A stretch of DNA of 64,000 nt from Candidatus Aenigmatarchaeota archaeon (GTDB taxonomy: Archaea > Aenigmatarchaeota > Aenigmatarchaeia > Aenigmatarchaeales > Aenigmatarchaeaceae), in assembly GCA_016933455.1 (NCBI GenBank), contig JAFGAZ010000015.1:11583-75582 (forward strand). Reading direction: 5' to 3'. Shown piece by piece: positions 14,598 through 64,000 of the stretch. Position numbers and translations under genes: made by a program. Below the pieces are notes generated by a model. The model did no database searches. It saw nothing but the letters and a program-made list of their open reading frames with translations, and was not told the origin of the DNA. Each line of letters starts with the position of its first letter. The stretch's first letter is position 1.

Positions 14598-17500
14598 ATG
14601 AGAAAAAGTTTGTTTTTTTTGATTTTTGTCTTGCTATTGTCTTCTATAGCCATCATAACTCTTGCAGATGATGTCATTTCTGAAAATACAACACAAGCAG
14701 AAGATATCGTGATGTCGGAAAGCATAGAAAGCACCGGCACTTTGTTCGAGACGGAAACGCCCTTTCTAATTTTAGAGAGCAGTGAGCCCTTACACATATC
14801 TATGGACGTAGTCACCTCTTCTCCGGAAATAGGCATGATCGATATCAACATAGAGGACTTTGAAGGCTTTGCAACTATTGTATTGGAGGGGTTGGAAGTT
14901 GGACATGATTATTATGTTTATACCAACAGCTATGAAAACAAACAGATTTTAAAAGCGGTTGCAAAAGAATGCGAAGATAAATGCGAAACAGAAGTCAAGG
15001 GCACAATATCTTTCAATGTTTCAGGTTCGCCAACGCACATTTGGTTACAGAACAAACCGTCCACAAAGATAATAAGGGACAATACAAATGGTGGGGACTG
15101 TTACCTTGTGGGTACATGGGACTATGCAACAAAGACATGCGTACTTAATCAGGACCTTACTGAAAGCGTCCAGATAGAAAGCAACAACATAGTTTTCGAC
15201 TGCAACGGTCACAGCATAACCGGCTCAAGAACTGGTAACGGGATATACATGTATTACGCAGATTATGCTACCGTGAGAAACTGCAAGATAAGCAACTTCA
15301 CATATGGCATCCGTACTTACAACGCGGATTATGGCAATATAGAAAACAATGTGATTTTCGAGAATTTGGACCGTGGTATTTACATATACTATGGTAACGG
15401 CAATTTCATGGTTAACAACGATATCATTCTAAACAACAACTATGGTATCTACATATATAGGTACTATAACAACAGGGTATACCACAACAACTTTATTGAA
15501 AACCGCATTCAACTTTACAATTACGGTGGTTATAGCAATTATTTTGATAACGGCTATCCATCAGGAGGCAACTACTTTTCTGATTATAGCGGAATAGATA
15601 GTGACGGGGATCACATAGGCGACAGCTACTATGTCTTCAATGTGGGTCAGGATCACTATCCTTTCGTGGATGACTACGGTTGGCTTGGCGCTGACTTTGA
15701 CGGCGACGGCATATGCAGAATAGGATGGACCAACGAAAGTTGCATAGGTTCTGATAACTGTGTGTATATCTTCAATCCAGACCAGACCAATTCAGATGGC
15801 GATTCCTTTGGTGACGTTTGTGACATATGCCCTTTTGCGACAAATGAAGACCAGCTAGATAGCGATGAAGACGGTTTTGGCGACGTGTGCGACAACTGTC
15901 CTGATATTTCTAATAATGATCAGATTGATGTTGATAGTGATGGCTTAGGGGACGCCTGCGACAACTGCATTAATGATTTCAATCCAATCCAGACCGACAG
16001 CGATAACGATGGTCTGGGCGACGCATGCGAAAAAATGCTAGGTTTCCTGATTAATCCATTAATGCCTTTGACAGTTAGTCAGAACGAGCCTTTTACATTC
16101 ACTACAAGAGTTGAATGTAACAATGGTCCATGTAGCAATGTGGTTGCAATTCTAGACCCTATAAATAAACCTTTATCATGCAAGTACATTTATTATGGAG
16201 GTGTTAGGGAGAGTGGTGTTTATACTATATATCCATCAGGTCCAGAGTCTGCTGGTTACGACGTCTTCTGTGATATGGAAACTGATGGTGGAGGCTGGAC
16301 ACTTGTAGCCTCTACATACCTTAATACTTTGAACGATCAGGGAGGGTCGTATTATGTTGATCTAGAAACCCTTTACCCAACTTCTTCACATGAAAGTGTT
16401 TGGGATGGTATGAGACCATTATCATTGGGAATGGAAGATGACATAAGGTTTTCGTGCAAGGTTGACAGAACTGATATTGATTTTGCTGTTGATTTGGCTT
16501 TCTACGACATTAACTGGTATTACGAGATAACAAACTCTTCAACTGACGAGGGTGTTTATTTCGAAGATAATAACGGTGTTGGACAGACCCTGCCCGCGCC
16601 TGCCAGAAAGAACATACTAACTGGAGACACCAGAGTTTTAGGTGACCAGTGGAATTATGGTTATTTGGAAGGAGAAGACTATAATGGTGACACTTATGAT
16701 TTTACTGTTGATTTTGATGATAGAGGAATGGACTCTAATCAGCAGGACGGAACAGACTGGGGAGAAGATGATGGTGAGAAAAAATGCGGTTCGGTTTATC
16801 CTTCATATGGAACATGGTTCATATGGTTCAGAGAGGGAATGGATTATTCTAAAATAAAGGGTGTCGTGCCTATGGACGAAAGTGCAAAACCCTTTTACAC
16901 AACAACTCAGAACCCTATGTCTGGTTCTGATATATCCTGTCTGCAAGACATGGACACTGGAGATATTTGCGAGCAAACATGGAACGTCATGCCCACAGGA
17001 CAGCAAGGATCATCATACAGCTTCTTTACGATTTACAGCTTCATGGATGATGAAGCACTTACTGACACAGTCAATATAACGATTTACTGTGAAGATAGTG
17101 ATGGAGATGGTGTATGTGTTGATGTTGACAACTGCCCCTTTGTTATTAATCCGGATCAGCTAGATGATGATAGTGATGGTTTAGGGGATGTGTGCGACAA
17201 CTGTCCTGATATTTCTAATAATGATCAGATTGATGTTGATAGTGATGGCTTAGGGGACGCCTGCGACAACTGCGTTTATGTTTATAATCCTGATCAGGCT
17301 AATTCTGACAACAGTGCATTAGATTTCACTTTTATTATAGTGGGGGACGAGAATGGCCATCGCTATCTTATCAAATCCAATAACGACGGAACATTCGAAG
17401 CCTCTGTTGATTTGGGCGTTTTTGGCGGCAATTTGAGGGGAGGTGCCGTAGCAGACTATGACAACGACGGCGACTATGACTTTGTGACATGCAACGATAA

Positions 17501-20500
17501 CGATAATTGGTGCTATTTCGTTGCCCAGGAAAGCAAAGGAGTGTTTTCTTCAGGAACAAGAATCGGCAGCATTATTACGTCTTTGAGTGGTTATGAGATG
17601 GACATGGCAGCAGCCGATTTCAATAACGATGGCAACTATGACTTTATAGTTGGTGGTAATAATGATGATATTTATCTTTTTCTTGGTGATGGTATGGGTG
17701 GATTTACAACTTCCACAATAACAACTGATGCTCCAAACAATTATGGTAGAGGAAAGGATGCTGGCGATATAAACGAAGATGGTAACATGGATTTTGTTTA
17801 CGGCGACAACGGCAGCGGTCTTGTCTATGCTTACTATGGCGACGGAACAGGAAGTTTTTCCTCGCCCGTGTCTTTGTTTGACACTCTCGGAAACAGCAAC
17901 GATCCTTACGGTGTCACTCTTGCTGATTTCAATAATGATGGTAATCTAGATATAATTGCAATAGGTGGAAGTAGTGGTAATTTTGATTTGTGGACTGGCA
18001 ATGGTGCTGGAAGTTTCACATATCAATGGCAAGTTTTTGACACCAATAATCATGGTTCTATAGATAACTATGATTTTGACAACGACGGCGACCAGGACGT
18101 TGTTATAACAACGTACAGTAATAGACAAATAATGTATTACAGCAATGATGGTGATGGTCATTTCACGTATTTATCCACTATTGCTTCAACAATCGGTTAT
18201 TCATTCGGAATTTCAGCACCACCTGTTGCCAAACTCGGAGACGAATTTGGAGATGCTTGTGATAATTGCCCATACACAGATAACCCTGAACAAACTGATA
18301 CCGACAATGACGGCGTTGGTGATGCGTGCGACAACTGCGTTTATGTGGTAAATCCAGATCAGATAGACAGCGATTCTAAAACCATATCTGATATTGTGGT
18401 TTTTGAGGAAGATTTTAATGATAATATGCTTAACACAACCAAGTGGACAACAGATATTGTTGGGGACAGTACATATCAGGAGACTAATCAAGAAGGCAAG
18501 TTCAATATTCTTGGTCAGGGAAGCAGTTCCACATATCATATTTACTTGGTTTCTGAGAATATTCACGTTGAGGACTGGGAAACTCTTACAGTAGAAGGCA
18601 AATGGATGTTCAGCAGCTCGGCTACAACACCTGAGATGCTATTCCAGCTAATAGATTCCGATACTAGCAGTGTAAATGGTGTGGGCTATGCTACATGGGG
18701 TTCTAGGATTAGATACTTCCTTTCAACAACTACCGAAGACTCTAGAACCATACCAAGAACATACGCTGCATTCAAAATGATAATAACAAAGACAAGCATG
18801 GAATACTGGGAGAATGGTGTAAAGATAAAAGAGCTACCAACAACATCACTTGCGTTAGGAGAAAATTTCAAGCTAAGGATAGGTGGCTGGGATTATTCTA
18901 GAATTGCTGGCCAGTATGCATATTTTGACGACATAAAAATATCCATCAACGGAGAATCAAACGATGGCTTAGGGGATGCGTGCGACAACTGTCCATATGT
19001 TCCCAATCCGAGCCAAGAGAACAATGACGGTGACAAAGCTGGAACGGCATGTGATTGCGATGATAACGATCCTTTGAATTATCCTGGCGGTGTTGAGGCC
19101 TGCGATAATAGAGACAATAACTGTAATTACATTGTTGATGAAGACTTGGTAGAGTCTTGTGGAGAGGGTGCATGCATAGGAACATCGACATGCTCTGCCG
19201 GTATTTGGGGAGACTGTTCAACCTACGGCAATGACGCGGGCACATGCGCCATATGCGATATTTCAGGCATACCTTCCTTTGATGAGACTCAGGATAGTGA
19301 CTGTCCTAACACACAGTGCCAGGATTCTTGTTTACTGACTCCTGATGGAAATCCCTTTACTTGGGACTATGCTGAAGACGTTCCAAACGAGTGTTCTGCA
19401 TTGTTTACATGCACATCTAACGATTGCATTTACGAACACGAATGCAATGTTGAAACATGTTCGGCTGAATGTGATGCGACTCATGATTGTGAGGATAGCA
19501 CGTGTTCCCAAATATATGACGACGAATGCATTGGTTTGAAGCTAAAGGATTGGAATTCCAATATGGATTATGACAGTCTTTTGGTTGAAGAATCTTGTAG
19601 TAATTCTTGCCTTGATACATGCCTCTGCACTGATTGTGAGGTTGATTGTACAGCACAAGAACCAGAACCATATTGTGTGAAAAATGTCTGTAATGCTGAA
19701 TGTGACATGGACGAACATTGTTTAGCTACAGAGTGCGACCAGAACGACGGTTGTTATGACAACATCTATAGGGACTATGAAGACGTAGACAATAACTGTC
19801 TTGGAGATTGTTCCTGCGAGAATAATGAATGTACGATATACAGTGAAGAAGCGGACAATGATGGAGACGGTTATTCGGTAAACTGTGGGGATTGTGACGA
19901 TTATGATATCACTTCATATCCCGGTGCCCCAGAACTTTGCGATAGAAAGGATAATAATTGTGATGGTATTATTCCCGAAGACGAGATAGATGACGATAGT
20001 GACGGCATGACAGAATGCGAAGGAGACTGTAATGACAACGATGCGACAATGTATGTTGGTGCCGAAGAACTATGTGATCTCAAAGACAATAATTGTGACG
20101 GTCAGGTCGACGAAACCATTGCAGGTCAGGAGACAGATGCTGACAGTGACACAGTAAATGATTGTTATGATGACAAATGTTTTGGAACAGGTCTCTGGTA
20201 TGCAGAAAAGACTTTGCAACCAAATCATTTCGATTCATCGAATACCAATCTTGAAGAAACATATGGTTGCAGCTGCGAGCAGATACTTTACTGCAAACCT
20301 GGAACTGATACAGGAGAGTACAAATTCGGATGTTCTGTAGGCACTATGAACGTCTGGATATACCAAAAGGCCGAAAGCTGGGCTCCCGATTGCCAGATAG
20401 ACGGCAAAGTCGTCATGGAAGGTGAGGGCAAGCCTTTGTTTGAAAATACTGATGATGATTGGATGCTAGATATTATAGACTTCGATAACGACAATGATGG

Positions 20501-20594
20501 TGTGGATGATTCTTTGGACGACATGCCGGAAGATTCTGACCCTGAAGGATCAGAAGGTCATGGCACACCAGATTGGTATAAGAAAAAGAAATAG
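14598..20594 (+). CDS. giant secreted mosaic adhesin-like protein (1998 aa)
   Basis: All sub-coordinates below are approximate.
- Signal peptide: [23 protein letters not shown].
- NosD-like parallel beta-helix, ~15068-15675, ending in the [20 protein letters not shown] motif.
- Three thrombospondin type-3 Ca-binding repeat blocks, ~15691-16033, 17088-17312 and 18232-18375.
- Fibrinogen-like signature.
- FG-GAP/VCBS propeller.
- Jelly-roll/ConA-like region, ~18395-18948.
- MopE-like C-D-D-x-D...PGAxExCDxxDNNCDG repeats, ~19050-19140 and 19886-20113.
- Cys-rich blocks.
- No C-terminal TM segment. Confidence 0.85.
15885..15968 (+). repeat. 84-nt perfect direct repeat, copy 1 (TSP3 cassette [28 protein letters not shown])
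   Basis: Identical nucleotide for nucleotide to 17190-17273 by manual comparison. Confidence 0.9.
16170..16840 (+). other. fibrinogen-related-domain-like segment inside the 1998-aa ORF (approximate bounds)
   Basis: [21 protein letters not shown]...[19 protein letters not shown] (motif at 16269-16307) matches the hallmark C-D-M-[DE]-T-D-G-G-G-W-T of fibrinogen C-terminal domains. The canonical C-terminal WW..C..SNLNG signature was not seen. Confidence 0.5.
17190..17273 (+). repeat. 84-nt perfect direct repeat, copy 2
   Basis: Identical to 15885-15968. The flanks are similar at the protein level only. Confidence 0.9.
17320..18225 (+). other. FG-GAP/VCBS repeat beta-propeller region inside the 1998-aa ORF (approximate bounds)
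   Basis: At least five Ca-binding blades are visible: [51 protein letters not shown] and [13 protein letters not shown]. Each is preceded by a G-x-G-x-G-x-F element. Confidence 0.75.
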
Positions 20595-33654: not shown

Positions 33655-36600
33655 ATGAAGTTATTCGGTAATAGGTTAAAAGGTAGTTCTGGTGTCGCTA
33701 TCGGCGCCATGGTCGTACTCACACTCGCTTTCATAGTTGCTAGCGTGAGCTATATGATGCCTGTTTTGGCTGCTCATGACGCTTTAGTTACCATCACACC
33801 AAATAAAGCAAGCTGTAGTGATTTGCCCAGTACATTCAATGTTAATGTAGAAAATGTCGGTAATGGTGGTTATGGAATTTATAATGTAAAAATATACAAG
33901 GCAATGACTAACATCGTTTCGTTAACATGTGGCCCTGCTCCTTCTGGATGGACATTGGTTGGAGGCGGTCTCCAATTTGGTTCATATTGTGAATATACAA
34001 CTGACCCATACATTGGTGGCGTGATTGATTATGGGGAGGAATTAGACTTTACTTTTGATGCGGTTATAGACCAAGACAATTGTCAAAGCACTTTTAGGGT
34101 AACAACCTTGGATAATCAAGCAATTGTTACTGGTAGCGGTCAGGGAGAAGAAGAGAATCATGACAAGGTGTTAAATGTAGATTGTACACCGCCTGTAATA
34201 GAAAAACAGATAACTTCTGGTACATTTGATGAAAGAGATGGTGTTTGCCCTCCCGGACTACAGGAAGAGGGAGATGTTTGCTGGATGACGCAAGGAACAA
34301 TACATGTCACTGCAACCGATTCTAGCTGCAACGACGAATGTAACTTGGGTCTTGCTTATTGTGAATGGGACTATACTGTTGACGGTGTCCCAGAAGACAG
34401 CGGTAACGAAACCGCAAATACATGCGTTGAAGGATGGGACATTGTCTTTGATGAGGATTCTGAACATATTTTGACAATAACTTGTTATGACGTTGTTGGA
34501 AACAGTGTTGAAGATGTTGAAACATTCAAAGTGGATGACACTCCGCCTACAACAACAAAAGACATAGAGCCGGATGAATATGTTAGAGACGGTGCAGAAT
34601 ATATCGATACTGTGAATGAAATAACATTTACAAATCCTGACGGCGGAGATATATGCGCAATCGGTACGGACAAGACATGGTACAAGAATGTAGTTTATAC
34701 AGAAGAAGTTTTGAGGACAATAAATAATGACGGTCCTCACGGTTATGACTATTGTTATCAGCCAGATATGTATTGTAATGGAGCATATTTGGGAACTACA
34801 ACACCATATGAGAGTGGTGTAGAATGCATAAACGAAGCGCAGGAACATTGCAACGATAACGTTGTGGAAGGTTGCGACGGTTTGGACTGTCAAAGATGGG
34901 AAGCCGATGGATATGACAATTGGGAGAGGTGTGTTGAATCTTATGTATATGGAAATTGTAATGTAGATTCATCATGGAAACTATACGACGGAACCCCAAT
35001 AACAAAAGACCAGGAATCATGCCACGTACTTTATTACTTTAGTATCGATGAGCTAGGAAATGTTGAAGACATGCAGTACAACTGCTTCTTTGTTGACAAG
35101 ACACCGCCAGAATTATCAAAAGAAGTGGGCGATCCAAAACTACAATTTTGTGACATGACAGAAGAGCCTGAAGTATTAACAGAGGCCGATTTGTCCAATG
35201 ATGTGTTTGGAGTTACAGTAACAAAGTCATCCGACGGTACTAAAGTAAAGTGGGTTGTTGATTTTGACGAAACAGATATGGAAGGTCATACGGCTACAGG
35301 AGCTCAGGTTATGATAGCCAGTGAATCAGTTCCTCTATTCAATATAGGTATGATGCAAGATGGGGGCAATTGGTTTGCAGGATACAAGCCTTATGATGGA
35401 AGTTGGGGTGCTGCTACGAATGTTCTTCCAGATGGAATGACTGTAACAGGAAGTCCTAATTCGGAGTACTATGAGATAGAGATTCCTATTGAATCTCTAC
35501 CATGCCCTTATTATTGGGCAATAAATGTAGAAGCAACATGTCCAGGATGTGACGGATTCCCCGGTTCATCTTCGGCACAACAAAACTATCCAGAAGACTG
35601 GTCAAGATGGACAGCTGTAAACACAGCTTTGGGTCCACAAACAAACAATTTCTGGGTAACAGATGAGACGGACATAACATTTACTTGTAGAGATCCAGAA
35701 CCACACCCGTCCGGAGACGAGGAAGTATGCTTTAAGGTTTCGTACGACATGGAACAAGACGGATACAATACAGATGTTTATTGTGCCAAGTATAGTGGAA
35801 CGATGGAAGGAGACTGGTGTTGCATTGATTCTACACCACAAACACCTTTTGTTTTCAATTTCAATGCAGAGGAATATTCTTTGCATGACTTGGAATACTA
35901 TTGTAGAGATGCTGTTGGAAAAGAAAGCGAGCCGAAAATACAATACTACAAGGTCTATGCAGTGCCCGAGGTTTCAAAGGAAATGGCCGACGATGCTGTG
36001 TATATAGGAGACTGCCTGCCTGGCACAGAGCCAAGCGACGACGAATGTTATGTCAAATCCGGAAATGTCGTAGAAATAACATTCAGCGAGCCTCAAGCAA
36101 ACGGATGCTTGTTGCCAATCGAATGTACTTATGAGGTGAAATATCAAAACGAGATTGTAGACTTTGGCGATTTCAATGACGATATCACAATACCAATGTC
36201 AGGTGACTGTGAGCACATTCTTACAATAGAATGTGTAGATGCTATTGGTAATACAGCTTTCCATGATGTGGAAACATTCGAAGTGGATGAGACCCCGCCA
36301 GAGACAACAAAAACATACGGAGATCCGACTGTTGTTGACGGTGATTATAGATGGATTACTTCAGCTACGCCAATAACACTGACTTCAGAAGATGAAAAGG
36401 TTGGTGTCGATGGTATCTATTACACATACGAATGGGTTTCTGATGAAATGTGCGAAGCACATCCAGAGAATTCAAAGACAGACGAATACCAGTATCTACC
36501 ATCGTCTGGAAATTACGTGTTCCCTTCGACCAATGAAGATAACAAGAACGGGGAAAACGTCTACAGACCAGGAGTTATAGGACCTCATGTGAACTTGGTC

Positions 36601-44800: not shown

Positions 44801-45014
44801 AATTACAAAGAACGATACAAGATGTGTTATGCCAGATGGTCCTGTTTGTGACAATTGTGGCAACTCTGTTCCTGAAATAGAGATACCGACATTTAACATA
44901 CAAATGCCAAAGTTCACTGTACCTACATTTAGCTTTACAAAACCTTCTTTCGACTTTTCTAAGACTGTTTTCAAGATACCTAGCATAACATTCTCATCTT
45001 TCCTTAGAAGATAG
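41856..45014 (+). CDS. giant secreted Cys-rich protein (1052 aa) with PKD-like N-domain, disintegrin-like domain and repeated Cys-rich modules
   Basis: Has a signal peptide, a PKD-like INWGDGT motif and ICDNDIDDDCDGLVDCDDPDC. The disintegrin-like region begins VCGNGIVETGEDCDPGEDVSGDCCDATC and is followed by six disintegrin-loop-like repeats. Later Cys-rich blocks include FCNG/WCNG-type repeats. The C-terminus is a P-x-F periodic tail with no TM segment. Confidence 0.85.
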   Translation: MKASSIAFVLSVFFVSTIIISTIVFAGQAVYSIDVEQPVPGSNVINPVDITGIWHVSAPQGNIEQYNVQINWGDGTVVDIVNINRTEAGETQQTQEFFGNFSTLVLTDCDSDDGEDNCNVGLLSHTYGGEYLCQQTDVTVKLYHSTPPGTESSGDAQVNFILIPGIDEICDNDIDDDCDGLVDCDDPDCDGDPACPVQVCGNGIVETGEDCDPGEDVSGDCCDATCHYETSSYTCRDSVGVCDMPEQCTGSSALCPEDSFMSSSTVCRSGSGDLCDPDETCTGTDASCPADQISPAGMVCNYGSGDMCDPDETCTGVAGEACPVDSIMPYMTVCRSGSGDLCDPDEMCTGIEDMPCPEDNVASSDTECRQAAGICDVAETCTGVVGQTCPTDSFLSSSTVCRVSAGDCDLTEMCTGSSADCPDDAFVPQGTLCLDGSYCNGEEKCDGFGVCQSGSAVSCISNDISEIATCFNTPDGNDYTWDSRNPFTSICVDDDENTGHCTTGDDTVTSACDYEQCNAECDETHACDDSSCEETYDDYCDGFVLTEYDSDKIKDSTTVSDSCPNTCLGDCTCTDCDTDCSAPATSTYCVKDVCDAECDSDDDCDVTDCDYLDGCYGKDYYDYSDAENTCLGDCSCTVNSCTSPSISQNDARCTECQTDSDCDSKDRDYCVGTAVKHDEGRCVDYECSVETTTVQECDDTLWCNGDETCSNAACVSGTAPNVDDGVDCTIDSCDEANDVIINTPDDSYCDNGLWCDGQETCDISLGCQAGTAIDCSDDLFCTVDEYCDDDSDSCAFSPRDCSGNNIEGIATCNNDPDNNPFTWDYRSAFESSCDDENDVCTVGDSEISYTCHDCDLTDGIGTSLEERCCAECDQDSDCVQSTGYCDYENMTYCSRDSYGTCGDDCGCIDDAWSCDASEYCLYCDHCGDGEVNCGEDCEVGDQGDRCLPEGASIFTCINGDSYETPEFDVCTQTCEWDGCTQIITKNDTRCVMPDGPVCDNCGNSVPEIEIPTFNIQMPKFTVPTFSFTKPSFDFSKTVFKIPSITFSSFLRR
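42453..43154 (+). repeat. disintegrin-like domain plus six tandem ~33-aa repeats C-[RN]-x(3,4)-G-x-C-D-x-x-E-x-C-T-G-x(4,5)-C-P-x-D
   Basis: The repeats begin at Cys235, 267, 300, 334, 368 and 401 of the ORF. Examples are CRDSVGVCDMPEQCTGSSALCPED and CRSGSGDLCDPDETCTGTDASCPAD. Confidence 0.8.
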
Positions 45015-45962: not shown

Positions 45963-46802
45963 ATGAAAACAACAATGATAGCAACCTTGATTATGTTTAC
46001 TCTATTTAGCACTATGGCCTTTGCAACTTCTGTTAGCACAGATTACGAAGGCGTAGGAGAGTTCTCAATGGAAGTTACGATAGCTTCGTCAGTAAATCCT
46101 GATATAACAGACAGCGTCCACATAAACGCAGGTTGCTGCGGCACATGCTGCTGTCCTAACGAATGCTGCCCTGCGATCGGAGAAATAGGAGAATACCAGG
46201 GCAATTTGTTTATGACAAACAATCCCTTTTCGGTTTCATATCATTCAGCAGATGTCACCGAGGGTTGCGTTGACATAGACCAATATTATACCGATGTGAT
46301 AGGTGATATGACCATTCAGAGCTACTATCATACACACCTAAACGGCACAGGCACTGCGGAATCATACATGTTTTACGTTGTTCCTGGAGCAGCAGCTAGC
46401 ATACAGCTAGCAAACGGTACAGGAACTTCTCATGTTTCCTTTGGTCAGATAGCCTATGTAGGAACTGACTATGATTTTTCAGCAGAATATGGCGGAACTG
46501 TTTGGGCTTGCGCTCCTGGCTATGCTGGACTTTACAACGAGTACTATTACAGCGGCGGTCAGATTTACTACAGCAGCCAGCTTGGACTTTACTGCTCCCC
46601 GACTGACGGCAGCAAGATGAGCAGCTCTTTGTTTGCATCATCAACTGACAGCTTCAATCTGACAAGCGAGTTGCAGGTGGGTGATGTTGAGAATTGCCAG
46701 GAAGCAGGGGTTGAAAACGGTACTGCAGAATATGGATTTACTGCAAACTTTTACGACATGTTCGATGATGTTTATTTCGGTTTTGATATGATTTTAGGGT
46801 GA
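45963..46802 (+). CDS. secreted hypothetical protein (279 aa) with a CCGTCCCPNECC cysteine cluster
   Basis: Signal peptide MKTTMIATLIMFTLFSTMAFATS, with SD AAGGTAATGA. The mature part is Y/G/S-rich. Confidence 0.65.
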   Translation: MKTTMIATLIMFTLFSTMAFATSVSTDYEGVGEFSMEVTIASSVNPDITDSVHINAGCCGTCCCPNECCPAIGEIGEYQGNLFMTNNPFSVSYHSADVTEGCVDIDQYYTDVIGDMTIQSYYHTHLNGTGTAESYMFYVVPGAAASIQLANGTGTSHVSFGQIAYVGTDYDFSAEYGGTVWACAPGYAGLYNEYYYSGGQIYYSSQLGLYCSPTDGSKMSSSLFASSTDSFNLTSELQVGDVENCQEAGVENGTAEYGFTANFYDMFDDVYFGFDMILG

Positions 46803-46806
46803 TTTA

Positions 46807-47874
46807 ATGAAAAAAACTATATTAGCAACAATAATGGGAATAATGCTGTTATCTACGCTTGCGTTGGCAGACCAGGTTAACATGAACATAAGCGTGAACG
46901 GTGAGGCAAACCTAAACATAACAGTTGATGCAGACGATACAGAAGCAAGGGCAATGATCGCACAAATGCAGCTCGATGCCTACGGAACCATGACAGGCTC
47001 CGGACCTGCTGACATGATACTTGACGAGATACAGACAGGTGAGGGAAACCCCATAGTGACAACAGAAGGCATGAACACGGTTTATGATCTTTGCGAGGAC
47101 CCCTTCCTCAAGAACTATCTTGGAAACATAGGCGAACTTCCCCCTCTCGACTTTGTGGATTATGTAAAGGCATTGGGATACGATGACGAGGCTCACATAA
47201 ACCTCATATGGACAATATGCCAGCAAAAATACATAGCTGAGAAAGAAGAGAGATGGTCATCTGACACAGGAGTTCAGGTAAACGACATGGTGAGGTTCAT
47301 AGCAGGCGGCATAGAGTGGCTTGTTAGCAGGGACCCAACGCTTCCTGACGGATACAAGAAGATAGGAAGCTCAATGGATAGCTACTTTGCAAGCGACAAG
47401 GATGTGTGGATTTTGGTCAATAAGATAAAGGAACTCGAGGTAAGGCTTGAGACTTTGGAAAAGACCATGGAAAGAGTGGACACTGAGACGTACTGTGATG
47501 CAAAGCTTGAGGCAATGGACAAGTACAACCTAAGCTATGTAAAGTGTGGAGAGAACTCTACCATATACGCACAGGTAAATCCAGATGAATTCGGCATTGG
47601 AGTTGTTGGTTACACGACCAACGAGGTCAGATGTGAGGAAGACTGGACATGCACAGAGTGGGGAGAATGTGTTGACGGCGAGATGAACAGGGTGTGCACT
47701 GATGCGAACCTTTGCGGAACAACAGATAACATGCCTTTGCAAACGCAGGGATGTGTTGAAATAGAGATTATGGCAGAAGAAGACAAGTCAAACGCACCTC
47801 AGTTTTCTTACCTGTCAATGACAGCTGCTCTTTCGAACATTCAAGGTTTTCTTTTCCCATTGTTTATTGTTTAG
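46807..47874 (+). CDS. secreted protein (355 aa) with coiled-coil segment, TSP1-like Cys module and hydrophobic C-terminus
   Basis: Has a signal peptide, and starts 4 nt after the previous stop with SD GGGTGAT. The Cys module is CEEDWTCTEWGECVDGEMNRVCTDANLCGT...C (47632-47754). The protein ends ...GFLFPLFIV. Confidence 0.7.
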   Translation: MKKTILATIMGIMLLSTLALADQVNMNISVNGEANLNITVDADDTEARAMIAQMQLDAYGTMTGSGPADMILDEIQTGEGNPIVTTEGMNTVYDLCEDPFLKNYLGNIGELPPLDFVDYVKALGYDDEAHINLIWTICQQKYIAEKEERWSSDTGVQVNDMVRFIAGGIEWLVSRDPTLPDGYKKIGSSMDSYFASDKDVWILVNKIKELEVRLETLEKTMERVDTETYCDAKLEAMDKYNLSYVKCGENSTIYAQVNPDEFGIGVVGYTTNEVRCEEDWTCTEWGECVDGEMNRVCTDANLCGTTDNMPLQTQGCVEIEIMAEEDKSNAPQFSYLSMTAALSNIQGFLFPLFIV

Positions 47875-47899
47875 ATGGGAAGACAGAATTTTTTTCTAA

Positions 47900-47917
47900 A
47901 TTCTCTTATAAGAGAAT
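47900..47917. promoter_or_regulatory. 18-bp perfect palindrome ATTCTCTTATAAGAGAAT, 9 nt upstream of a TATA-like ATTTAAAG (47927-47934)
   Basis: Verified by eye. It lies between the T-run after gene 46807-47874 and the SD-led gene 47993-49111. Confidence 0.4.
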
Positions 47918-47992
47918 GCTATTAAGATTTAAAGTTTAGAAGAGTAATGAATAGTAGAAATTTTTTCTTAAAAAAATAAAAGGAGTGATAAA

Positions 47993-49111
47993 ATGAATAA
48001 AAAAATATTAGCTATAATACCAGTGCTTCTAATGGCTACAGTCGCTTTGGCAGACGGTTGCCCTGAAGGATATTCGGCACAGTTTGTTGAGACACTAGAT
48101 GTTCCTTGCGATAGCACTACATCTACAACGACAAGTTCACTTACAGAAGGTGTTCAGTACATATTTGATGCAAGTGGAACATGTTTCTGGCGTGTTGAAG
48201 GATCTGCCGGCGGATATATTGCAGATTCAAGCTATTGGTTGAGACATGATTCAATATACGAAGGATGGAGAGACCAGTATTCACTCGCTATGTGGGACAA
48301 CGGCTTTGTAAACATTCCATGGATAGGAACATATGAAGGTCCAAATGCTCATGAATACGAATATGATTATGTGACATTGACATCAGGACCCGTGCAGTTC
48401 ATATTCACAGATGATCAGTATGGCGATAATTCGGGTAGTTTGAATGTTGACATATACGAGTGCGTTCGAAATATTCCGGATAGGACAGCAGAAATAACTT
48501 CTCCAGAAATAGAAGAATCTGTTTCAGAATGTTCTGTGGACTTTGACGCATACCTAATAGACGATGACTATGATGCTGTTCAATGGGCAATTAGAAAGGG
48601 AACATGTGCTGCAGGTACAAATACCGTGTTTGGAAATGTCGATGGTTTCAACAACCCATTCGATTGGATATTCGATGGCGAATATACATATAACTTCCAT
48701 GCGCAAACTGACGTTTCTGGATGGGAAACAGGAAACTATTGTTTCGTTTTCAATCCAAAAGAAGATTTGGGAGAGTCGGACATAAGATTGACAAGAGAAT
48801 TTTCCATAAGCGATTTAGACGAAGACGGAATAAACGATTGTAGCGATATGTGTCTAGATAGTCAGAAAGACTTGATGGAACTTGGTACAAACAGATGGAT
48901 GGTCGAAGATTGGACATGGGTAACAGGAGAAATAAAGGGCAAAGGAAAAGGACCCCAGCTTTCATACGACTATAAAGGTTGCACATGTAGTGACATCTTG
49001 ACATGGCTGAACGAGAACTATCCAGAAGAATATGGAAACATGGAAGGTCATTGGAAATTCGGTTGCAGCATAAGCGTCATGAACGATTTCATATCTCTGA
49101 CGTCCCAATGA
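47993..49111 (+). CDS. secreted hypothetical protein (372 aa)
   Basis: Signal peptide MNKKILAIIPVLLMATVALADG, with SD AGGAGTGAT. The C-terminal module DEDGINDCSDMC...KGCTCSDIL...KFGCSISVM is shared with the C-terminus of the 1998-aa ORF. Confidence 0.7.
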   Translation: MNKKILAIIPVLLMATVALADGCPEGYSAQFVETLDVPCDSTTSTTTSSLTEGVQYIFDASGTCFWRVEGSAGGYIADSSYWLRHDSIYEGWRDQYSLAMWDNGFVNIPWIGTYEGPNAHEYEYDYVTLTSGPVQFIFTDDQYGDNSGSLNVDIYECVRNIPDRTAEITSPEIEESVSECSVDFDAYLIDDDYDAVQWAIRKGTCAAGTNTVFGNVDGFNNPFDWIFDGEYTYNFHAQTDVSGWETGNYCFVFNPKEDLGESDIRLTREFSISDLDEDGINDCSDMCLDSQKDLMELGTNRWMVEDWTWVTGEIKGKGKGPQLSYDYKGCTCSDILTWLNENYPEEYGNMEGHWKFGCSISVMNDFISLTSQ

Positions 49112-49148
49112 TTTTTTTGATTTTTCTTTTTCTCTTTATTTTTATTAT
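49112..49148 (+). terminator. oligo-T terminator candidate
   Basis: The run tttttttgatttttctttttctctttatttttattatt follows immediately after the stop codon. Confidence 0.5.
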
Positions 49149-49261
49149 TAGTGTAAACTTTGCGTAATTTTCACATGTTTAAACATCAGCTATTTATTTC
49201 TAGAAACCAAATATATGTTAAAATGTTTTCTTTGAATTTAATCAGAAAAGGAGGTATTAAA

Positions 49262-49939
49262 ATGAAAAAATTGCTAGTATTACTACCTATATTTTTAATA
49301 GCGACAATGGCGTTTGCAAAACAAGATTGCATCACGATACAAGATCAAATATTGACATACTCGACAGGTCATTATCTAGCAGGAGAACCTTTGACAATAG
49401 GATATGACGCATATGGTTACAATTATCAGGGACACATGTTCAAAGGATCTTATTTCAATGTATATTCTGGCGGTGCAGGATTCACACCTTATGTAGGAGA
49501 AGATGAGATTTATCTAGAGGAAAATCCCGCAGCAGAAACGCATTGGGCTTGGCCTTATAGAGACATTCAAATATTAATGAAATGGAATGATGCATGGCTC
49601 AGTAACAAAGACTGTGATAATGATGGCAAGTTGGATAGATATTATGGATATTCTAGCTATATCGGTTCAGGTGCGTGGGAGACAAATCACCAATTTGGTG
49701 AATATGAAATGGATGGAAAAACTTGTACATGGAACTATTTTACAAAAATAGTCGCAGCACCCACTGATGCCAACGTAAACACTGGTTACTGGTATACAGC
49801 AGATGGAGTAGAAATCGGACCTGTTTTATGGGGTTCGTTTGCAACAATATTAGACGTATACAACGATCCATGCGCGGGTGATCATGGCGTTGAATATAAT
49901 TCACCCGCACCGACAGGCTTCGGATTTTACATGCCTTAG
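49262..49939 (+). CDS. secreted hypothetical protein (225 aa), aromatic/Gly-rich
   Basis: Internal ATG with a strong SD (AAAGGAGGT) and signal peptide MKKLLVLLPIFLIATMAFAKQ. The track ORF starts at an upstream TTG. Confidence 0.7.
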   Translation: MKKLLVLLPIFLIATMAFAKQDCITIQDQILTYSTGHYLAGEPLTIGYDAYGYNYQGHMFKGSYFNVYSGGAGFTPYVGEDEIYLEENPAAETHWAWPYRDIQILMKWNDAWLSNKDCDNDGKLDRYYGYSSYIGSGAWETNHQFGEYEMDGKTCTWNYFTKIVAAPTDANVNTGYWYTADGVEIGPVLWGSFATILDVYNDPCAGDHGVEYNSPAPTGFGFYMP

Positions 49940-57907: not shown

Positions 57908-60364
57908 CTAACCTGCCATTTCTGCTTGAATTTCTGACTGCGTCAAAGCCTTTTCAAATATCTTGACCTCGTCTATTGTTCCGTCAAAGAGCTTCCAGTT
58001 TGCTCCGGGATTGTTACCTATCCAAGCTGAAATAGTGTTGTCAGTTGCTATGCTTCCGGTTTTTGCTGTTATACCCACCTGAATTCCGTTCTTGTACAAT
58101 ATCATGTGCGTTGAGTTGTAAACTGCGGCAGCATGTGTCCATGTCCCTGTCTGCAGTTCGTCTGAGCTGTCTGGCAAGTCATCTCCGTATAGTGTGGCAG
58201 TTCCGCCCACGCTAGTTTTCAGTCTGAACCTCAAGTAATAAGGCGAGCTGCCTATGGTGCTTAGCATCCACCAATGATCCTGTTCATCCTGGCCTGTTGC
58301 CTTTGATATTATTCTCTGGTCAGAAGTTCCAAAATCATCTACTTTTATCCAAGCCATCATTGTCATTTCACTACCTGTAATATCCATAGTTCCTATGTCG
58401 ACATAATCGTCGTATCCGTCAAATTCCAAACAGTTTCCGTTATTGCAATCGCTTCCTGTTTTCCATGCTGAATCAGTAAACGTAGTCAATGTGCTTCCGT
58501 ATTCTATCTGGAAAGCGTCTACCCACAAATTACCCGTAGCACTACCTACCAAACCCAAAGTAAAATTATACTTAACAGCGCCTGGAGGTGGTACGTGAGT
58601 TGTATAAGACCTTTTCCAATCCCATGTACCTGTACCACTTCCTATTTTCGAATCAGGATATCTTGTATACGGAGAGCTTGTGTAACTAGTAATCTCATTA
58701 TCTGATGAATCATACCATCTTCCTATAATCAATGCATAATGCCATGATACCGAACCTAAAACTATATTTTCACCCTTGCTGTAAGTGCTTATTGTAATAG
58801 GATTATCGGTTGTAACAGGAATAGAAACAGGACCTGCATACTCAGAATAACTGTCTCCCGTAAGATCTTGAAACCTTGAAGATTTAGATACATGATAAAA
58901 ATCACTTGAAACGATGTCCCATGTTCCTCCTCCACTTCCCCAACCAGTTTTATCTGATTCAAAGCTCGGGTTTGTAATCTGGTTTCTCCCACTAGCATAA
59001 ATAGTGCCGTCGTTGCTGCCAGCACTGTCAACTGCTATTGAACCTGATCCTTCGTCAAAGCTCCAGAAGACTATTGGATTTGCTTCTTCTATTTCATATT
59101 TTTGATATTCTTGTTGTATTTCTTCCTGTGCAAGTTCCGTGTTATATATTAAAATCTCGTCTATTGTGCCGTCGAAATAATTGGTGCCATCGCTTCTTCT
59201 ACCAATATTCAAGTTGGCAGAATTGCCAAAGCCATAACCGCTAGGACTAGAGTCATCAATGCGAATTCCGTTGACATAAACCTTTATGCTGCTTGTTCCG
59301 TCGAATGTGAATGCTACGTGGGTCCATTCGTTGAGTGGTATGACGTTTCCAAGATTTCCTCTGTAATAGTTGACGCCCCCGTAGCGGTACTGTGCCATTA
59401 TCGAACCTGTGCTGCCCGACCTTGCTATTATGTAACTACCGTCCCCTCCATTCCCTTCGCTTATTATCCTGTCATAAGCGTCCCACGTGTCTGGTTTTAT
59501 CCACATCATGACAGTTATCTCACCGACTACATTAAGAGTGCTATCATCTCCGCAGTTAAGGTATTCGTCTGCACCGTTGAATCTTAAGCCTTGATTTGAT
59601 ATGCCGCTTACCCAATCAGTTGTTTCCATGTTGATGAGATTACAGTCGTTTCCATTGCCGGAAGTATCTGATGCGACAAAGTCGCCGCTGTCGTCAAAAT
59701 TCCAGAAACCTATTATGCCTGTTTCGGGATAGCCACAAACATTCGAGATGCACACCTCGCTACAACAATCGCTTTCTGATGTACAAGTTTCTCCGTCTTC
59801 TTTACACGGCTCTTCACAGTCATTGTCATTGGCATAGTTGCAGTCCAAGCCGCAGCATTCGTTGTTGTTATAGCAGCCGCAGTCAGGGTCCTCTGAAATT
59901 GTGCAGTCGCTTGGGCATTTACCATCACATAAACCGTTCGTTATGCAATCTGGCTCGGATTCTCCTGGCAAAGTTTTTGAAGAAGAGCCTCCCTGCCCTG
60001 AAGACACGCTTATCACAGCTCCTGGTTCAGGATCGAAAGACAGAGTCACAACCCCTATATCGTCTTCGTGTATTGTGGAAGGAACAATCGTTGCGCTGCT
60101 GTCAGCAACTCCGTCAACAAAAACAACTATATTGGTTGCATCCCCCCTTCCTGTGTTTCTTACATACACCTCTCTTTCAGGAAGATAAACCGACTCTATG
60201 CTAAGAGTTGATAGTAATGTTTTGGAAGTTTGCTCTGCAGCCTCAATGCCGCTTTGGGCGGTTTCAGAGACAGTGACGCTAAAGAAGCTGTAGGTTAGTG
60301 ATACGAGTGAGACCGCTATGATAAGTATTAGTATTGAAACGATAATAGCAGATACGCCTTTCAT
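57908..60364 (-). CDS. archaeal type IV pilin-like (class III signal peptide) adhesin with Cys-rich linker, two LamG domains and a CBM-like jelly roll (818 aa)
   Basis: The N-terminus MKGVSAIIVSILILIIAVSLVSL (60281-60364) fits the prepilin motif [KR]-G-[V]-[S]-[A]-[I] plus a hydrophobic helix (DUF361-like). Two LamG_3 C-terminal signatures are present: FDGTIDEILIYNTELAQEEI and FDGTIDEVKIFEKALTQSEI. The middle region has NPSFE...GW...LWVDAFQIE. Confidence 0.8.
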   Translation of the reverse strand: MKGVSAIIVSILILIIAVSLVSLTYSFFSVTVSETAQSGIEAAEQTSKTLLSTLSIESVYLPEREVYVRNTGRGDATNIVVFVDGVADSSATIVPSTIHEDDIGVVTLSFDPEPGAVISVSSGQGGSSSKTLPGESEPDCITNGLCDGKCPSDCTISEDPDCGCYNNNECCGLDCNYANDNDCEEPCKEDGETCTSESDCCSEVCISNVCGYPETGIIGFWNFDDSGDFVASDTSGNGNDCNLINMETTDWVSGISNQGLRFNGADEYLNCGDDSTLNVVGEITVMMWIKPDTWDAYDRIISEGNGGDGSYIIARSGSTGSIMAQYRYGGVNYYRGNLGNVIPLNEWTHVAFTFDGTSSIKVYVNGIRIDDSSPSGYGFGNSANLNIGRRSDGTNYFDGTIDEILIYNTELAQEEIQQEYQKYEIEEANPIVFWSFDEGSGSIAVDSAGSNDGTIYASGRNQITNPSFESDKTGWGSGGGTWDIVSSDFYHVSKSSRFQDLTGDSYSEYAGPVSIPVTTDNPITISTYSKGENIVLGSVSWHYALIIGRWYDSSDNEITSYTSSPYTRYPDSKIGSGTGTWDWKRSYTTHVPPPGAVKYNFTLGLVGSATGNLWVDAFQIEYGSTLTTFTDSAWKTGSDCNNGNCLEFDGYDDYVDIGTMDITGSEMTMMAWIKVDDFGTSDQRIISKATGQDEQDHWWMLSTIGSSPYYLRFRLKTSVGGTATLYGDDLPDSSDELQTGTWTHAAAVYNSTHMILYKNGIQVGITAKTGSIATDNTISAWIGNNPGANWKLFDGTIDEVKIFEKALTQSEIQAEMAG

Positions 60365-60398: not shown

Positions 60399-60836
60399 AT
60401 GCCTAAAGCAAAGAAAAGGGCCGGCAAAAAAAGCAGGAAAGTTGCAAAAAGGACAAGAAGCAAAAGCGTAAAGAAAGCAAAGAAATCCTCTCCTAGATGT
60501 ATCAATGAGAGAATGCTTTTCGCAATATCTTCCATTCTCATACTTTCAGCTGTTATACTTTCCGTTCCTTCACAAGACATGGAAAGTATTTTTGAAGAAC
60601 AAGAGCAACAAGCAGATCAAATATCTGAGATTAAAGTTCTCTACTCATGCGAAAGCAATCTAGAGTGCTTCCTTGTTGGTTGCAAAAGTTCAGGCACGCC
60701 GTCGTTTATGGAGTGTGTGAATACCATGACGCAGGAAACATATTATGATAATTGCGAGGGTTACTGGGATGTTAGGGTCATCCAGGACTTTGCAAGATGT
60801 GCATGCGTGCAAGGCCTTTGTGAATTGGTGGAATAG
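60399..60836 (+). CDS. type II membrane protein: 35-aa K/R-rich N-tail, one TM segment, Cys-rich ectodomain (145 aa)
   Basis: The N-tail is MPKAKKRAGKKSRKVAKRTRSKSVKKAKK, followed by the TM segment LFAISSILILSAVILSV. There are 8 Cys in the C-terminal 70 aa. It lies divergent from the pilin-like gene across a 34-bp spacer. Confidence 0.5.
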   Translation: MPKAKKRAGKKSRKVAKRTRSKSVKKAKKSSPRCINERMLFAISSILILSAVILSVPSQDMESIFEEQEQQADQISEIKVLYSCESNLECFLVGCKSSGTPSFMECVNTMTQETYYDNCEGYWDVRVIQDFARCACVQGLCELVE

Positions 60837-62097: not shown

Positions 62098-62736
62098 TTA
62101 GCACTCGCCTTCTTGCCAATATTCTATTTTGTTGCTGCAAGCCATGCAGGCGTTTCCATATGTTTCCGAAGTTCTGTCTGACATAAAGCCGCAAACAGGC
62201 ATATATTCCATTGTGCAAATTTCTGCTTGCTTTTCCTCTTCTGTGCAAAATACAGAGCTTTGTGTAACTTCCCAGTTTTCAATCATAACTTCCATTCTTC
62301 TATCTCCTGCATTCAGATTCAAAATCATCTGAACTTCAAAGCAACCATCACATTCTAAACTCGAGACATTTGTTATTGTGGAACCTTTCAATGGCTCGAT
62401 AAAATCTACTGCCAAAGAAGCTGCCATTTTCTGGTCATCGTCTAGTTCCCATTCTCTAATGCAAGAGCCCACGCTTTCGTTCCAGGAATAGCCTGCAGGT
62501 CCTAGGCATCCATTTTCGTCTCTTTCCCCGCCTATTGGTTCATCCAAAACCTCGACAAAGTGCTTTCCATCCGGGGTGTTGCACTGCCTGGGATAGCTTT
62601 CCAATGCCGGATAGCCCGCGGCAATGCAGTCCTCAAAGCTGTCAATCTCCGATTCAGCAACGCACCCTGATAGCATTACTATCGGGACGACCAAAGCGGC
62701 CAAAATTAAAAGTTTGCCTTTCATAATATAGAACAT
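62098..62736 (-). CDS. putative lipoprotein with C-terminal Kazal-like domain
   Basis: The signal peptide ends in the lipobox-like LSGC. The C-terminus CTEEEKQAEICTMEYMPVCGFMSDRTSETYGNACMACSNKIEYWQEGEC has Kazal-type spacing (C..C-x7-C...Y-x3-C-x2-C...C). Confidence 0.55.
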   Translation of the reverse strand: MFYIMKGKLLILAALVVPIVMLSGCVAESEIDSFEDCIAAGYPALESYPRQCNTPDGKHFVEVLDEPIGGERDENGCLGPAGYSWNESVGSCIREWELDDDQKMAASLAVDFIEPLKGSTITNVSSLECDGCFEVQMILNLNAGDRRMEVMIENWEVTQSSVFCTEEEKQAEICTMEYMPVCGFMSDRTSETYGNACMACSNKIEYWQEGEC

Positions 62737-62811: not shown

Positions 62812-63197
62812 CTTTTTGAAATTAATAACTTCTTACGTGATAACATGTCAACTTCAATGTAATCATTGGAATCATTGCTGATTAGGCGACTAGATGAGGC
62901 TTCTTCTGACATTAACGTTATCCGTTTCAACCATACCATCAGGCTTGGTTGCTGTCGAGTGAATTATAACAGCTAAGTTTGAGCCCGAAAAGGGCTATGA
63001 AAAACCCCGTGGTATATGACGGCAGAAAAACGATAAGATGCTCATTGCGAATTGTTTCGCGGTGTAAGGGTTGAGGACTATGAATGTTTTCGAACACCTG
63101 TTGATGCCTACTTCGGGCAGATGAGAACAAGACGGTAAAACGAGTCCATAAGATCAATCATGATCAATGATACCGGCAGAGGTAGAAGGTAGGGTCT

Positions 63198-64000
63198 GAG
63201 CATATTCAAACCACCAGGTGGATAGCTCAGCTCTCGAGAGCGACGAAGATCCTAGCAAGCTGGGATAAGCTCGGGGTAGGCGCAAGCGGCCTTTGAACCC
63301 GAGATAGTCGAATGCGACATCGCACTGACTTTGGTCAGTAGTCCGAAAGGGCGGCGAACCCGCTGAATTGAAGCATCTAAGTAAGCGGAGGAAGAGAAAG
63401 CAATTGCGATTCCGTTATTAACGGCGAGCGAAAACGGAACAGAGCGAACCGAATTGCTGCAGAAATGCAGTTAAGATGTGGTACCCGGCAAAGCTTAGTT
63501 AGTCGACTTAAAGTCGCCTGGAAAGGCGCGCCATAGACTGTGATAGCCAGGTAGAGGAAGACTAAAAAGCTGATTCGGGAATTGACTACCATTCCTTGGA
63601 TATGGAGTGGGAAGGTGGCTGGCATCAACAGCCAACTCTAAACATCTCGAGAGTCTGATAGTGAAAAAGTAAGGTAACTGAAAGCTGAAAAGTATTCTTA
63701 ACAGAAGGTGAAAAGACCTTGAAACCTGTTGGTGATAGTTATCCATGGCCTGAAAGGTGTCCTTGCGAAGGAAAGACGAGTGATCGTCACATACGAGCAG
63801 GGGCTTACAGGGTCATGGAGTCCGTTTAGAAACACGGAGCGGGGAGTTTGTTTCTGTGGCGAGCATAAGTGCTTACGGCACGTATGCAAAGCGAAAGCGA
63901 AAAGTGCGTAGCGCAAGCATGGCACGGGGTCTGAAAGGGCCTAAAGTCACAGGGACAAGACCAGAAAGCACTTGATCTAACCCCAATCAGGATGAAGCGT
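63198..64000 (+). rRNA. rrl: 23S (LSU) rRNA, 5' ~800 nt, continues beyond the window; the 5' end is approximate
   Basis: Three stretches match conserved domain-I sequence: GGTGGATAGCTCAGCTC...CGACGAAG...GATAAGCTCGGGGTAGG, then GAATTGAAGCATCTAAGTAAGCGGAGGAAGAGAAA...TTAACGGCGAGCGAAAACGG, then CCTGGAAAGGCGCGCCATAGACTGTGATAGCC. All ORF-track ORFs here are spurious. Confidence 0.9.

Follow-up and report, generated by a model that had tools for sequence, protein, structure and literature searches.

The gene at positions 57908..60364 on the minus strand of the DNA analysed here (64,000 nucleotides of contig JAFGAZ010000015.1, from the Candidatus Aenigmatarchaeota archaeon assembly GCA_016933455.1; hereafter the window) reads in the open reading frame (ORF) list from an ATG start to a stop codon at 57908-57910 and encodes a protein of 818 amino acids (aa). 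We propose, with fair confidence, that this protein is a modular archaeal type IV pilin bearing a LamG adhesin, and that it takes its place, probably at the tip, in a pilus whose shaft is made of small paralogues. The proposal is based on the homology of its N-terminal part to pilins, a conserved processing motif, the LamG domains, the modular family to which the protein belongs, and one relative whose gene adjoins that of a pilus ATPase. The initial annotation of this gene, as a class III signal fused to lectin-type domains and hence a lectin tethered to a pilus or surface fibre, is supported by the presence of a whole pilin module and of LamG domains. An independent Logan contig of 7.4 kb encodes an identical 818-aa protein.

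The pilin module and its family

The relatives of the N-terminal part of the protein became visible only by exhaustive profile search; a word-indexed search with the N-terminal 139 aa returned a single match. The family profile was seeded with the N-terminal modules of the protein and three relatives and was searched against 1.84 billion cluster representatives. It matched 1498 of these at E ≤ 1e-3 and 478 at E ≤ 1e-10, with nearly all matches beginning at residue 1. Among the 150 best representatives, 38 had the size of an ordinary pilin (94-145 aa) and aligned end to end with residues 1-135. In all, the module can be aligned over its whole length with hundreds of stand-alone proteins of pilin size (129-140 aa). 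Names carried by family members at their source include 'type IV pilin [Candidatus Aenigmarchaeota archaeon]', 'archaellin/type IV pilin N-terminal domain-containing protein' and 'flagellin-like protein'. When a profile was built from 34 stand-alone, pilin-sized members, leaving out both the protein and its nearest relative, the protein scored 114 bits against it, and residues 30-139, which lack the hydrophobic helix, still scored 60 bits (E = 1.5e-14, Z = 1e6). The similarity is therefore not merely that of a shared transmembrane segment.

Comparison of 36 aligned family members with curated models placed the family among archaeal pilins and their kin. NCBIfam UpsA matched 34 of the 36 (best E = 3.3e-12) and UpsB 29 (best E = 1.1e-09), followed by TIGR02537 and NCBIfam ArlF with 17 each (best E = 2.6e-07 and 2.3e-07, respectively), NCBIfam BasA with 14 (best E = 1.5e-06), Pfam Pilin_N (PF07790) with 12 (best E = 2.1e-06) and NCBIfam ArlG with five. 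The family profile matched 8fk7_A, the subunit of a flagellar-like type IV pilus of Pyrobaculum calidifontis, over its full length (E = 9.8e-15), and also matched 9myg, the Haloferax volcanii pilin 8fj5, Iho670 and the Natrinema PilA2 pilin. Because all UpsA and UpsB scores were far under the equivalog cutoffs, we regard the family, as judged by these scores, as a separate DPANN-centred pilin family and not as an Ups orthologue. An identification of the protein as ArlF or ArlG was considered as well, and ranked under pilin on the sequence scores.

The predicted structure has the shape expected of such a pilin. AlphaFold2, given residues 1-139 with 103 family sequences, returned a helix from 2 to 50 and a beta-sandwich from 54 to 131 with a predicted local distance difference test (pLDDT) score of 88.5 overall, 91-98 over residues 1-30 and above 90 for the head strands 54-131. 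From this model we delimit an alpha-1 helix at residues 4-50 (60215..60355, minus strand), the N-terminal half of which, from residue 4 to about 30, is hydrophobic. From the model together with the leave-out profile and Foldseek we delimit a beta-sandwich head at residues 51-135 (59960..60214, minus strand), in which N70 and G72 are invariant. Foldseek searches with the model of the module returned FlaG, FlaF, 8fk7 (template-modelling scores of 0.59/0.60 over 143 columns) and several archaellins. On the evidence of both sequence profiles and predicted structure, we consider residues 1-135 to be a complete archaeal type IV pilin module and not a pilin-like signal alone. The beta domain that had been described as pilin-like at the outset is thus part of a module homologous throughout its length to stand-alone pilins and to solved archaeal pilins.

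The extreme N-terminus, MKGVSAIIVSILILIIAVSLVSLTYSFF, carries the predicted class III leader M-K-G (residues 1-3; 60356..60364, minus strand), for which the N-termini of the family and the archaeal rule predict a prepilin-peptidase cut after G3. The site, MKG↓VSAII (the arrow marks the predicted cut), has K at −2 and G at −1 and is followed by about 26 hydrophobic residues with no A-x-A site, unlike some ten other secreted proteins of the window, whose Sec signals are of the ordinary kind, the hydrophobic region being short and the site of A-x-A type. A Kyte-Doolittle scan found residues 1-33 to be the sole hydrophobic segment of the protein. Archaeal prepilin peptidases require G, A or S at −1, preceded at −2 by a charged residue, and among the sites predicted for characterised pilins are KAIS in UpsA, RALS in AapA/B, RAVS in PilA4-6 and KGQV in Epd (PMC4371748). 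The K-G↓V-S of our protein satisfies this rule and resembles the predicted UpsA, Aap and PilA sites. The same pattern was found across the family: for 145 N-termini, the −1 residue was G, A or S in all 145, the −2 residue was K or R in 125 and H in 11, the +1 residue was V, I or L in 142, the +2 residue was S in 133, and the leader was three residues long in 126. The reading of this N-terminus as a prepilin-peptidase motif followed by a hydrophobic helix therefore holds for the site itself, for the helix-length hydrophobic stretch and for the family in which the motif is kept, and from the motif we infer that the protein would be cleaved by a prepilin peptidase.

Fusion of this module to other domains is frequent. 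Of the same 150 best representatives, 105 were longer than 250 aa, and a Pfam scan for grafted domains in 98 of these found Laminin_G_3 in 60, NosD/Beta_helix in 12, Pentaxin in 10, CBM_4_9 and Polysaccharide lyase in two each, and PA14, fn3 and GH39 in one each. In the Aenigmarchaeota metagenome-assembled genome (MAG) GCA_016187335.1 (contig JACPJW010000001.1, 6014-10399 and 13943-15706), small genes with class III N-termini lie in a tandem array, with fusions of pilin to LamG (333 aa) and of pilin to a C-type lectin (252 aa) nearby. It had been remarked that the protein is far larger than ordinary pilins. This is true of the protein and commonplace in the family, most close relatives having C-terminal grafts, so that on the sequence comparisons we take it for a typical member of a large modular family and not for an oddity.

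The linker and the lectin-type domains

Directly after the pilin module lies a cysteine-rich linker (residues 136-215; 59720..59959, minus strand), delimited by the positions of its cysteines, the last part of which reads C-x6-C-x6-CC-x3-C-x4-C. There are 16 cysteines in the 71 aa from 140 to 210, not 18 in a block of 70 as first counted, and 20 in the whole protein. The pLDDT of the linker is below 50, and its matches in Pfam were limited to weak ones to toxin knots. A similar cysteine-rich block directly follows the pilin module in at least seven relatives (P0140, P0127, P0123, P0182, P0147, P0128 and P0135; BLASTP E ≤ 3e-4).

The remainder of the protein is made up of two LamG domains. As the initial annotation had it, Pfam Laminin_G_3 is present in two stretches (E = 3.4e-56; 190 bits against a cutoff of 27.6). 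LamG domain 1, with a concanavalin A-like lectin fold, occupies residues 216-425 (59090..59719, minus strand), with its best Pfam stretch at 263-417 and a pLDDT of 83-95. LamG domain 2 is in two parts. Its first strand segment, residues 430-459 (58988..59077, minus strand), contains the motif VFWSFDEGSGSIAVDSAGSNDGT and, with the insert described below taken out, aligns with the beginning of LamG-1; this opening, VFWSFDEGSGS...SNDGT (430-459), is typical and begins LamG_3 domains in many matches. The rest of the domain, residues 630-818 (57911..58477, minus strand), corresponds to the second Laminin_G_3 stretch and has a pLDDT mostly of 83-96. Foldseek with the full-length model gave probabilities of 1.00 to LamG, LNS and neurotoxin Hc domains, and also returned neurexin LNS and sialidase lectin domains; this search was dominated by LamG matches and is uninformative for the pilin head and the insert. 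We regard the LamG domains as lectin-type by fold, as judged from sequence and model, and their glycan binding as putative.

Between the two parts of LamG-2 is a beta-rich, jelly-roll-like insert (residues 460-629; 58478..58987, minus strand), a putative carbohydrate- or receptor-binding module for which AlphaFold2 predicts about 10 strands at a pLDDT of 57-91. When the insert was left out, the flanks 430-459 and 630-818 aligned along the whole of LamG-1 with 32% identity (E = 1e-20), and we conclude from this that the jelly roll is nested in LamG-2 and does not form a separate bead. The insert matched no Pfam family at E ≤ 10, CBM_4_9 (PF02018) included, whether the segment of the protein itself or six homologous segments were used. 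A profile of seven insert sequences matched the phage central fibre protein gp20 (PDB 8zdo_v) with E = 1.6e-6 and, very weakly, a module associated with GH10 (E = 1.1). The jelly roll of the initial annotation, likened there to a carbohydrate-binding module (CBM), is thus a real beta-rich domain in the AlphaFold2 model; it lies within LamG-2, it lacks a CBM_4_9 match, and 'CBM-like' remains a statement of resemblance only. Copies of LamG with this insert, 50-57% identical, were found in the pilin-type proteins P0002, P0015 and P0165 and in the non-pilin proteins P0005, P0008 and P0013, the latter three having Sec signals or, in one case, a glycosidase-like N-terminal region. Since the unit of LamG plus insert occurs in proteins of both types, we conclude that it is a mobile module, putatively for binding.

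One other filament family was considered from the side of these domains. The TafC model NF052521 scored 65.7 bits against the protein (cutoff 410). We rejected membership in that family, as the match covers residues 218-424 only, the LamG-1 region, and the N-terminus (MKGVS) has no twin-arginine motif.

Pilus subunit or surface lectin

The path that we infer for this protein runs from cleavage through incorporation into a filament to a position there and a ligand. The precursor would be inserted via Sec, and its three-residue leader (MKG↓VS...) would be removed by a prepilin peptidase of the PibD/FlaK type, whose gene would lie elsewhere in the genome. The helix and beta-sandwich module (residues 4-135) would then be taken into a type IV pilus by a PilB/PilC-type machine, the shaft of that pilus probably consisting of members of the same family that are paralogous, stand-alone proteins some 130 aa long. 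The C-terminal ~680 residues, comprising the disulfide-rich linker, LamG-1, and LamG-2 with its nested jelly roll, would be shown on the filament and would bind glycans on another cell or surface. The bulk of these ~680 residues would place the protein most likely at the tip, or else as a sparse minor subunit, and for a DPANN-type archaeon the likely target would be the envelope of a host cell.

Several observations weigh against this proposal. Anywhere but at the tip, a filament may have little room for a graft of ~680 aa. The module also resembles ArlF/ArlG and the bindosome protein BasA, which have class III-type N-termini and are not pilus shaft subunits. Taken alone, the protein had no Pfam pilin match at E ≤ 10 (Pilin_N, DUF361 and Arch_flagellin, PF01917; whole protein and four sub-segments), scored at residues 1-88 only 21.9 bits against NCBIfam UpsA (cutoff 130) and 20.3 bits against UpsB (cutoff 70), and found in the PDB a single match, 8fk7, at only E = 0.045. 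Membership among archaeal pilins rests on the family profile because the curated models miss the protein itself; DUF361 and Arch_flagellin, which the initial annotation had proposed as models for checking it, are without a match to it, and the assignment comes through the profile and the relatives only. Lastly, the 64-kb window lacks the rest of a pilus system. No T2SSE/PilB-type ATPase was found in it by tblastn with a PilB-type ATPase from the locus of a relative, no T2SSE, T2SSF or Peptidase_A24 was found by Pfam in its membrane and unassigned ORFs, the remaining ORFs being read as housekeeping genes, and no stand-alone pilin was found when all of its ORFs were searched with the pilin-family profile, to which the protein was the sole match and the next best ORF gave E = 1.4. 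Within the ORFs tested, these scans bear out the earlier statement that neither a prepilin peptidase nor a pilus ATPase is present in the window.

The gene neighbourhoods of relatives bear on this last point. P0015, a relative of 790 aa (MEKGVSPIFS...) with the same nested insert and LamG, is encoded on a 437-kb Joint Genome Institute contig 33 bp upstream of a 537-aa T2SSE/PilB3_C ATPase, and upstream of P0015 lies the gene of another modular pilin, 1397 aa long (MKKGLSSIII...; beta-helix and LamG). At five other loci, those of one modular relative and of four stand-alone pilins, there was no pilus machinery within 10 kb. The stand-alone orthologues P0268, P0301, P0309 and P0328 (~131-140 aa), from four unrelated metagenomes, share a common neighbourhood of pyruvate:ferredoxin oxidoreductase subunits, a helix-turn-helix protein, an S-adenosylmethionine synthetase and PolX. 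Archaeal PilA-type pilin genes are known to stand alone (PMC4858521). Because the stand-alone pilins of the family are likewise without such neighbours, we consider the machinery-free surroundings of the gene in the window to be uninformative. A search for related loci with the whole protein returned only LamG loci of Chloroflexota, which are bacterial.

The alternative that survives best is that the protein is a membrane-anchored or bindosome-like surface lectin, tethered by its helix, standing alone or in a short pseudopilus and never in a long pilus, with its class III N-terminus processed or not, as in the sugar-binding proteins and bindosome of Sulfolobus or the ArlF/ArlG stator. The LamG domains would then be presented at the cell surface. 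We regard this main alternative as unlikely. It is favoured by the matches of family members to ArlF, BasA and ArlG (17, 14 and 5 of 36, respectively), by FlaG and FlaF being the top Foldseek matches by E-value, and by the lack of pilus machinery and of a shaft pilin in the window. True filament pilins score higher, however, with UpsA matching 34 of the 36 members at best E = 3.3e-12 and 8fk7 matched over its full length at E = 9.8e-15, against 0.054 for FlaG and 0.69 for FlaF. The Foldseek ranking, moreover, reflects the beta domain only, since the crystal structures of FlaG and FlaF are without the helix. One relative adjoins a PilB-type ATPase, and the stand-alone pilin genes of the family also lack neighbouring machinery.

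A further alternative keeps the protein in the pilus and makes it the major subunit, so that the 818-aa protein itself would polymerise and the pilus would be coated over its full length with lectin domains on flexible cysteine-rich linkers. The C-terminus of archaeal pilin heads points outward, the ~80-residue linker of low predicted order could give the necessary room, no stand-alone pilin is encoded in the window, and large archaeal filament subunits do exist, such as the 303-aa Iho670. On the other side, related genomes encode many stand-alone paralogues of ~130 aa that fit the role of shaft subunit, bacterial precedents put modular pilins at the tip, and ~680 aa on every subunit would be expected to crowd a type IV pilus lattice. 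We therefore consider a shaft role very improbable. An ordinary Sec-secreted or signal-anchored lectin whose N-terminus looks like that of a prepilin by chance is strongly disfavoured, for short as the FlaFind-type motif is, and in spite of the failure of the Pfam pilin models to find the protein itself, the homology runs through the beta-sandwich (60 bits without the helix), the motif is kept across hundreds of relatives at 20-30% identity, and the hydrophobic stretch is ~26 residues long and lacks an A-x-A site, in which it differs from the Sec signals that other secreted proteins in the window carry.

Genomic setting and related systems

The window has a G+C content of 42% and contains housekeeping genes of archaeal type, among them those of the exosome, the proteasome, Mre11/Rad50, GatD and AMP phosphorylase. 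Its 3' end is the 5' part of an archaeal large-subunit (LSU) rRNA (63194-64000, plus strand; 620 bits). The nearest relative of the N-terminal part of our protein, P0121 (58% identity), is encoded by the Aenigmatarchaeota MAG GCA_043802485.1 at the end of a 265-kb contig and is its syntenic orthologue. The order LSU rRNA, Kazal-like secreted protein, ApgM, small protein and pilin gene is common to the window and GCA_043802485.1, between which ApgM is 82% and the LSU stretch 91% identical. This likeness places the organism among the tiny, symbiotic-type DPANN archaea, close to Aenigmatarchaeota. The LSU rRNA gene begins at 63194 on the plus strand and there is no small-subunit rRNA in the 63 kb upstream of it, so that the rRNA genes appear to be unlinked. 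ApgM, beside the pilin gene, is flanked by two small cysteine-containing secreted or anchored proteins (60399-60836, plus strand, and 62098-62736, minus strand), one of them with a Kazal-type inhibitor domain (22.7 bits against a cutoff of 21). Proteins ~60% identical to these two occur at the same positions in GCA_043802485.1.

Other large or clustered secreted proteins are encoded further away in the window, all on the plus strand. A 1998-aa surface protein with a Sec signal (14598-20594) has a NosD/beta-helix region, six FG-GAP_3 repeats and three MopE metal-binding motifs, with weak, sub-threshold matches to TSP_3 and CBM_4_9, and is another giant candidate adhesin. The disintegrin domain is mostly a eukaryotic domain of adhesion and venom proteins and is unusual in an archaeon; three stretches of it (Pfam 48.3 bits; cutoff 35.1) occur in a 1052-aa secreted protein at 41856-45014. 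A 1557-aa protein at 33655-38328 has no Pfam domain and an N-terminus, MKLFGNRLKGSSGVAIGAMVVLTLAFIVASV, that is loosely class III-like (K-G-S-S) and has a VLA↓AH Sec-type site. We considered the 1557-aa and 1052-aa proteins as further pilins and rejected both, as neither has a pilin-profile match and both have Sec-type cleavage sites. Four consecutive genes at 45963-49939, for proteins of 279, 355, 372 and 259 aa with Sec signals and no Pfam match, may be a lineage-specific cluster of secreted proteins.

Among known systems, the closest analogue is bacterial. Streptococcus sanguinis PilC consists of a short pilin module and a concanavalin A-like lectin, binds glycans and has been modelled at the pilus tip (PMC9934059). 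Modular pilins of this kind are widespread in bacteria, in a census that used the bacterial signature IPR012902 only (PMC8179133) and thus did not take in archaeal members such as our protein. Our protein, with its pilin module at 1-135, linker at 136-215 and LamG part at 216-818, is a modular type IV pilin in the sense of Raynaud et al. 2021, and by analogy we regard it as an archaeal counterpart of PilC. As in S. sanguinis PilC and PilB, a short pilin module bearing a class III signal is followed, after a linker, by a lectin of the concanavalin A-like/LamG type; the protein is likewise a proposed tip-located pilus adhesin and part of a broad grafting of functional modules onto pilins. Unlike PilC, it has an archaeal pilin module, with a 3-aa leader, no Glu5, an Ig-like beta-sandwich head and a likeness to UpsA and PilA, and there is no detectable sequence kinship between the two; it also has two LamG domains, a nested jelly roll and a cysteine-rich linker. 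The glycan binding of PilC was shown by experiment, whereas the lectin role proposed here comes from sequence and predicted structure.

Within the archaea, the protein shares with the Ups/PilA-type pilins and 8fk7 the motif of K/R-G/A before and V/I/L-S after the cut, the long alpha-1 helix and the beta-sandwich head; unlike it, these pilins are ~130-145 aa long and without grafted domains. It also resembles the LamG-like and lectin-like secreted proteins that have been linked to archaeal pilus systems, which are large and are predicted pilus adhesins. Whereas their location in pilus loci is what identified them, our protein is encoded amid housekeeping genes and is linked to pili by its own pilin module; DUF2341 was not detected in it. 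A domain similar to LamG-1 occurs in TafC (NF052521), a subunit of an archaeal surface filament, the Tat-fimbriae of Haloarcula hispanica (PMC11821415). The Tafi subunits use the Tat pathway for export and do not belong to the type IV pilins (PMC11821415). LamG proteins 'linked to type IV pili loci' have been noted to be expanded in the DPANN archaeon Mia14 (PMC5498576), and another genome survey reported that it could not annotate pilins at all (PMC9563170).

The protein introduces no new mechanism; what makes it of interest is how large and modular its DPANN family is, together with a candidate role in host recognition. The family profile finds pilins that general models miss. The present finding carries the idea of modular pilins over from bacteria to archaea, and here too LamG is the commonest graft in the sample. 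A wider possibility, which we put forward tentatively and do not yet favour, is that Aenigmatarchaeota and other DPANN archaea use a large and mostly undescribed pilin display platform, of which this gene would be one sample and in which a single conserved ~135-aa pilin module carries swappable LamG, beta-helix, pentaxin, C-type lectin, PA14 and phage-fibre-type jelly-roll domains, and the pilus is their main and rapidly diversifying organ of host recognition. If so, it would be an archaeal parallel to the type IV pilus-dependent episymbiosis of Patescibacteria. Host recognition and attachment in DPANN archaea are poorly understood, and the pilin-lectin fusions are concrete candidates for host-binding pilus adhesins.

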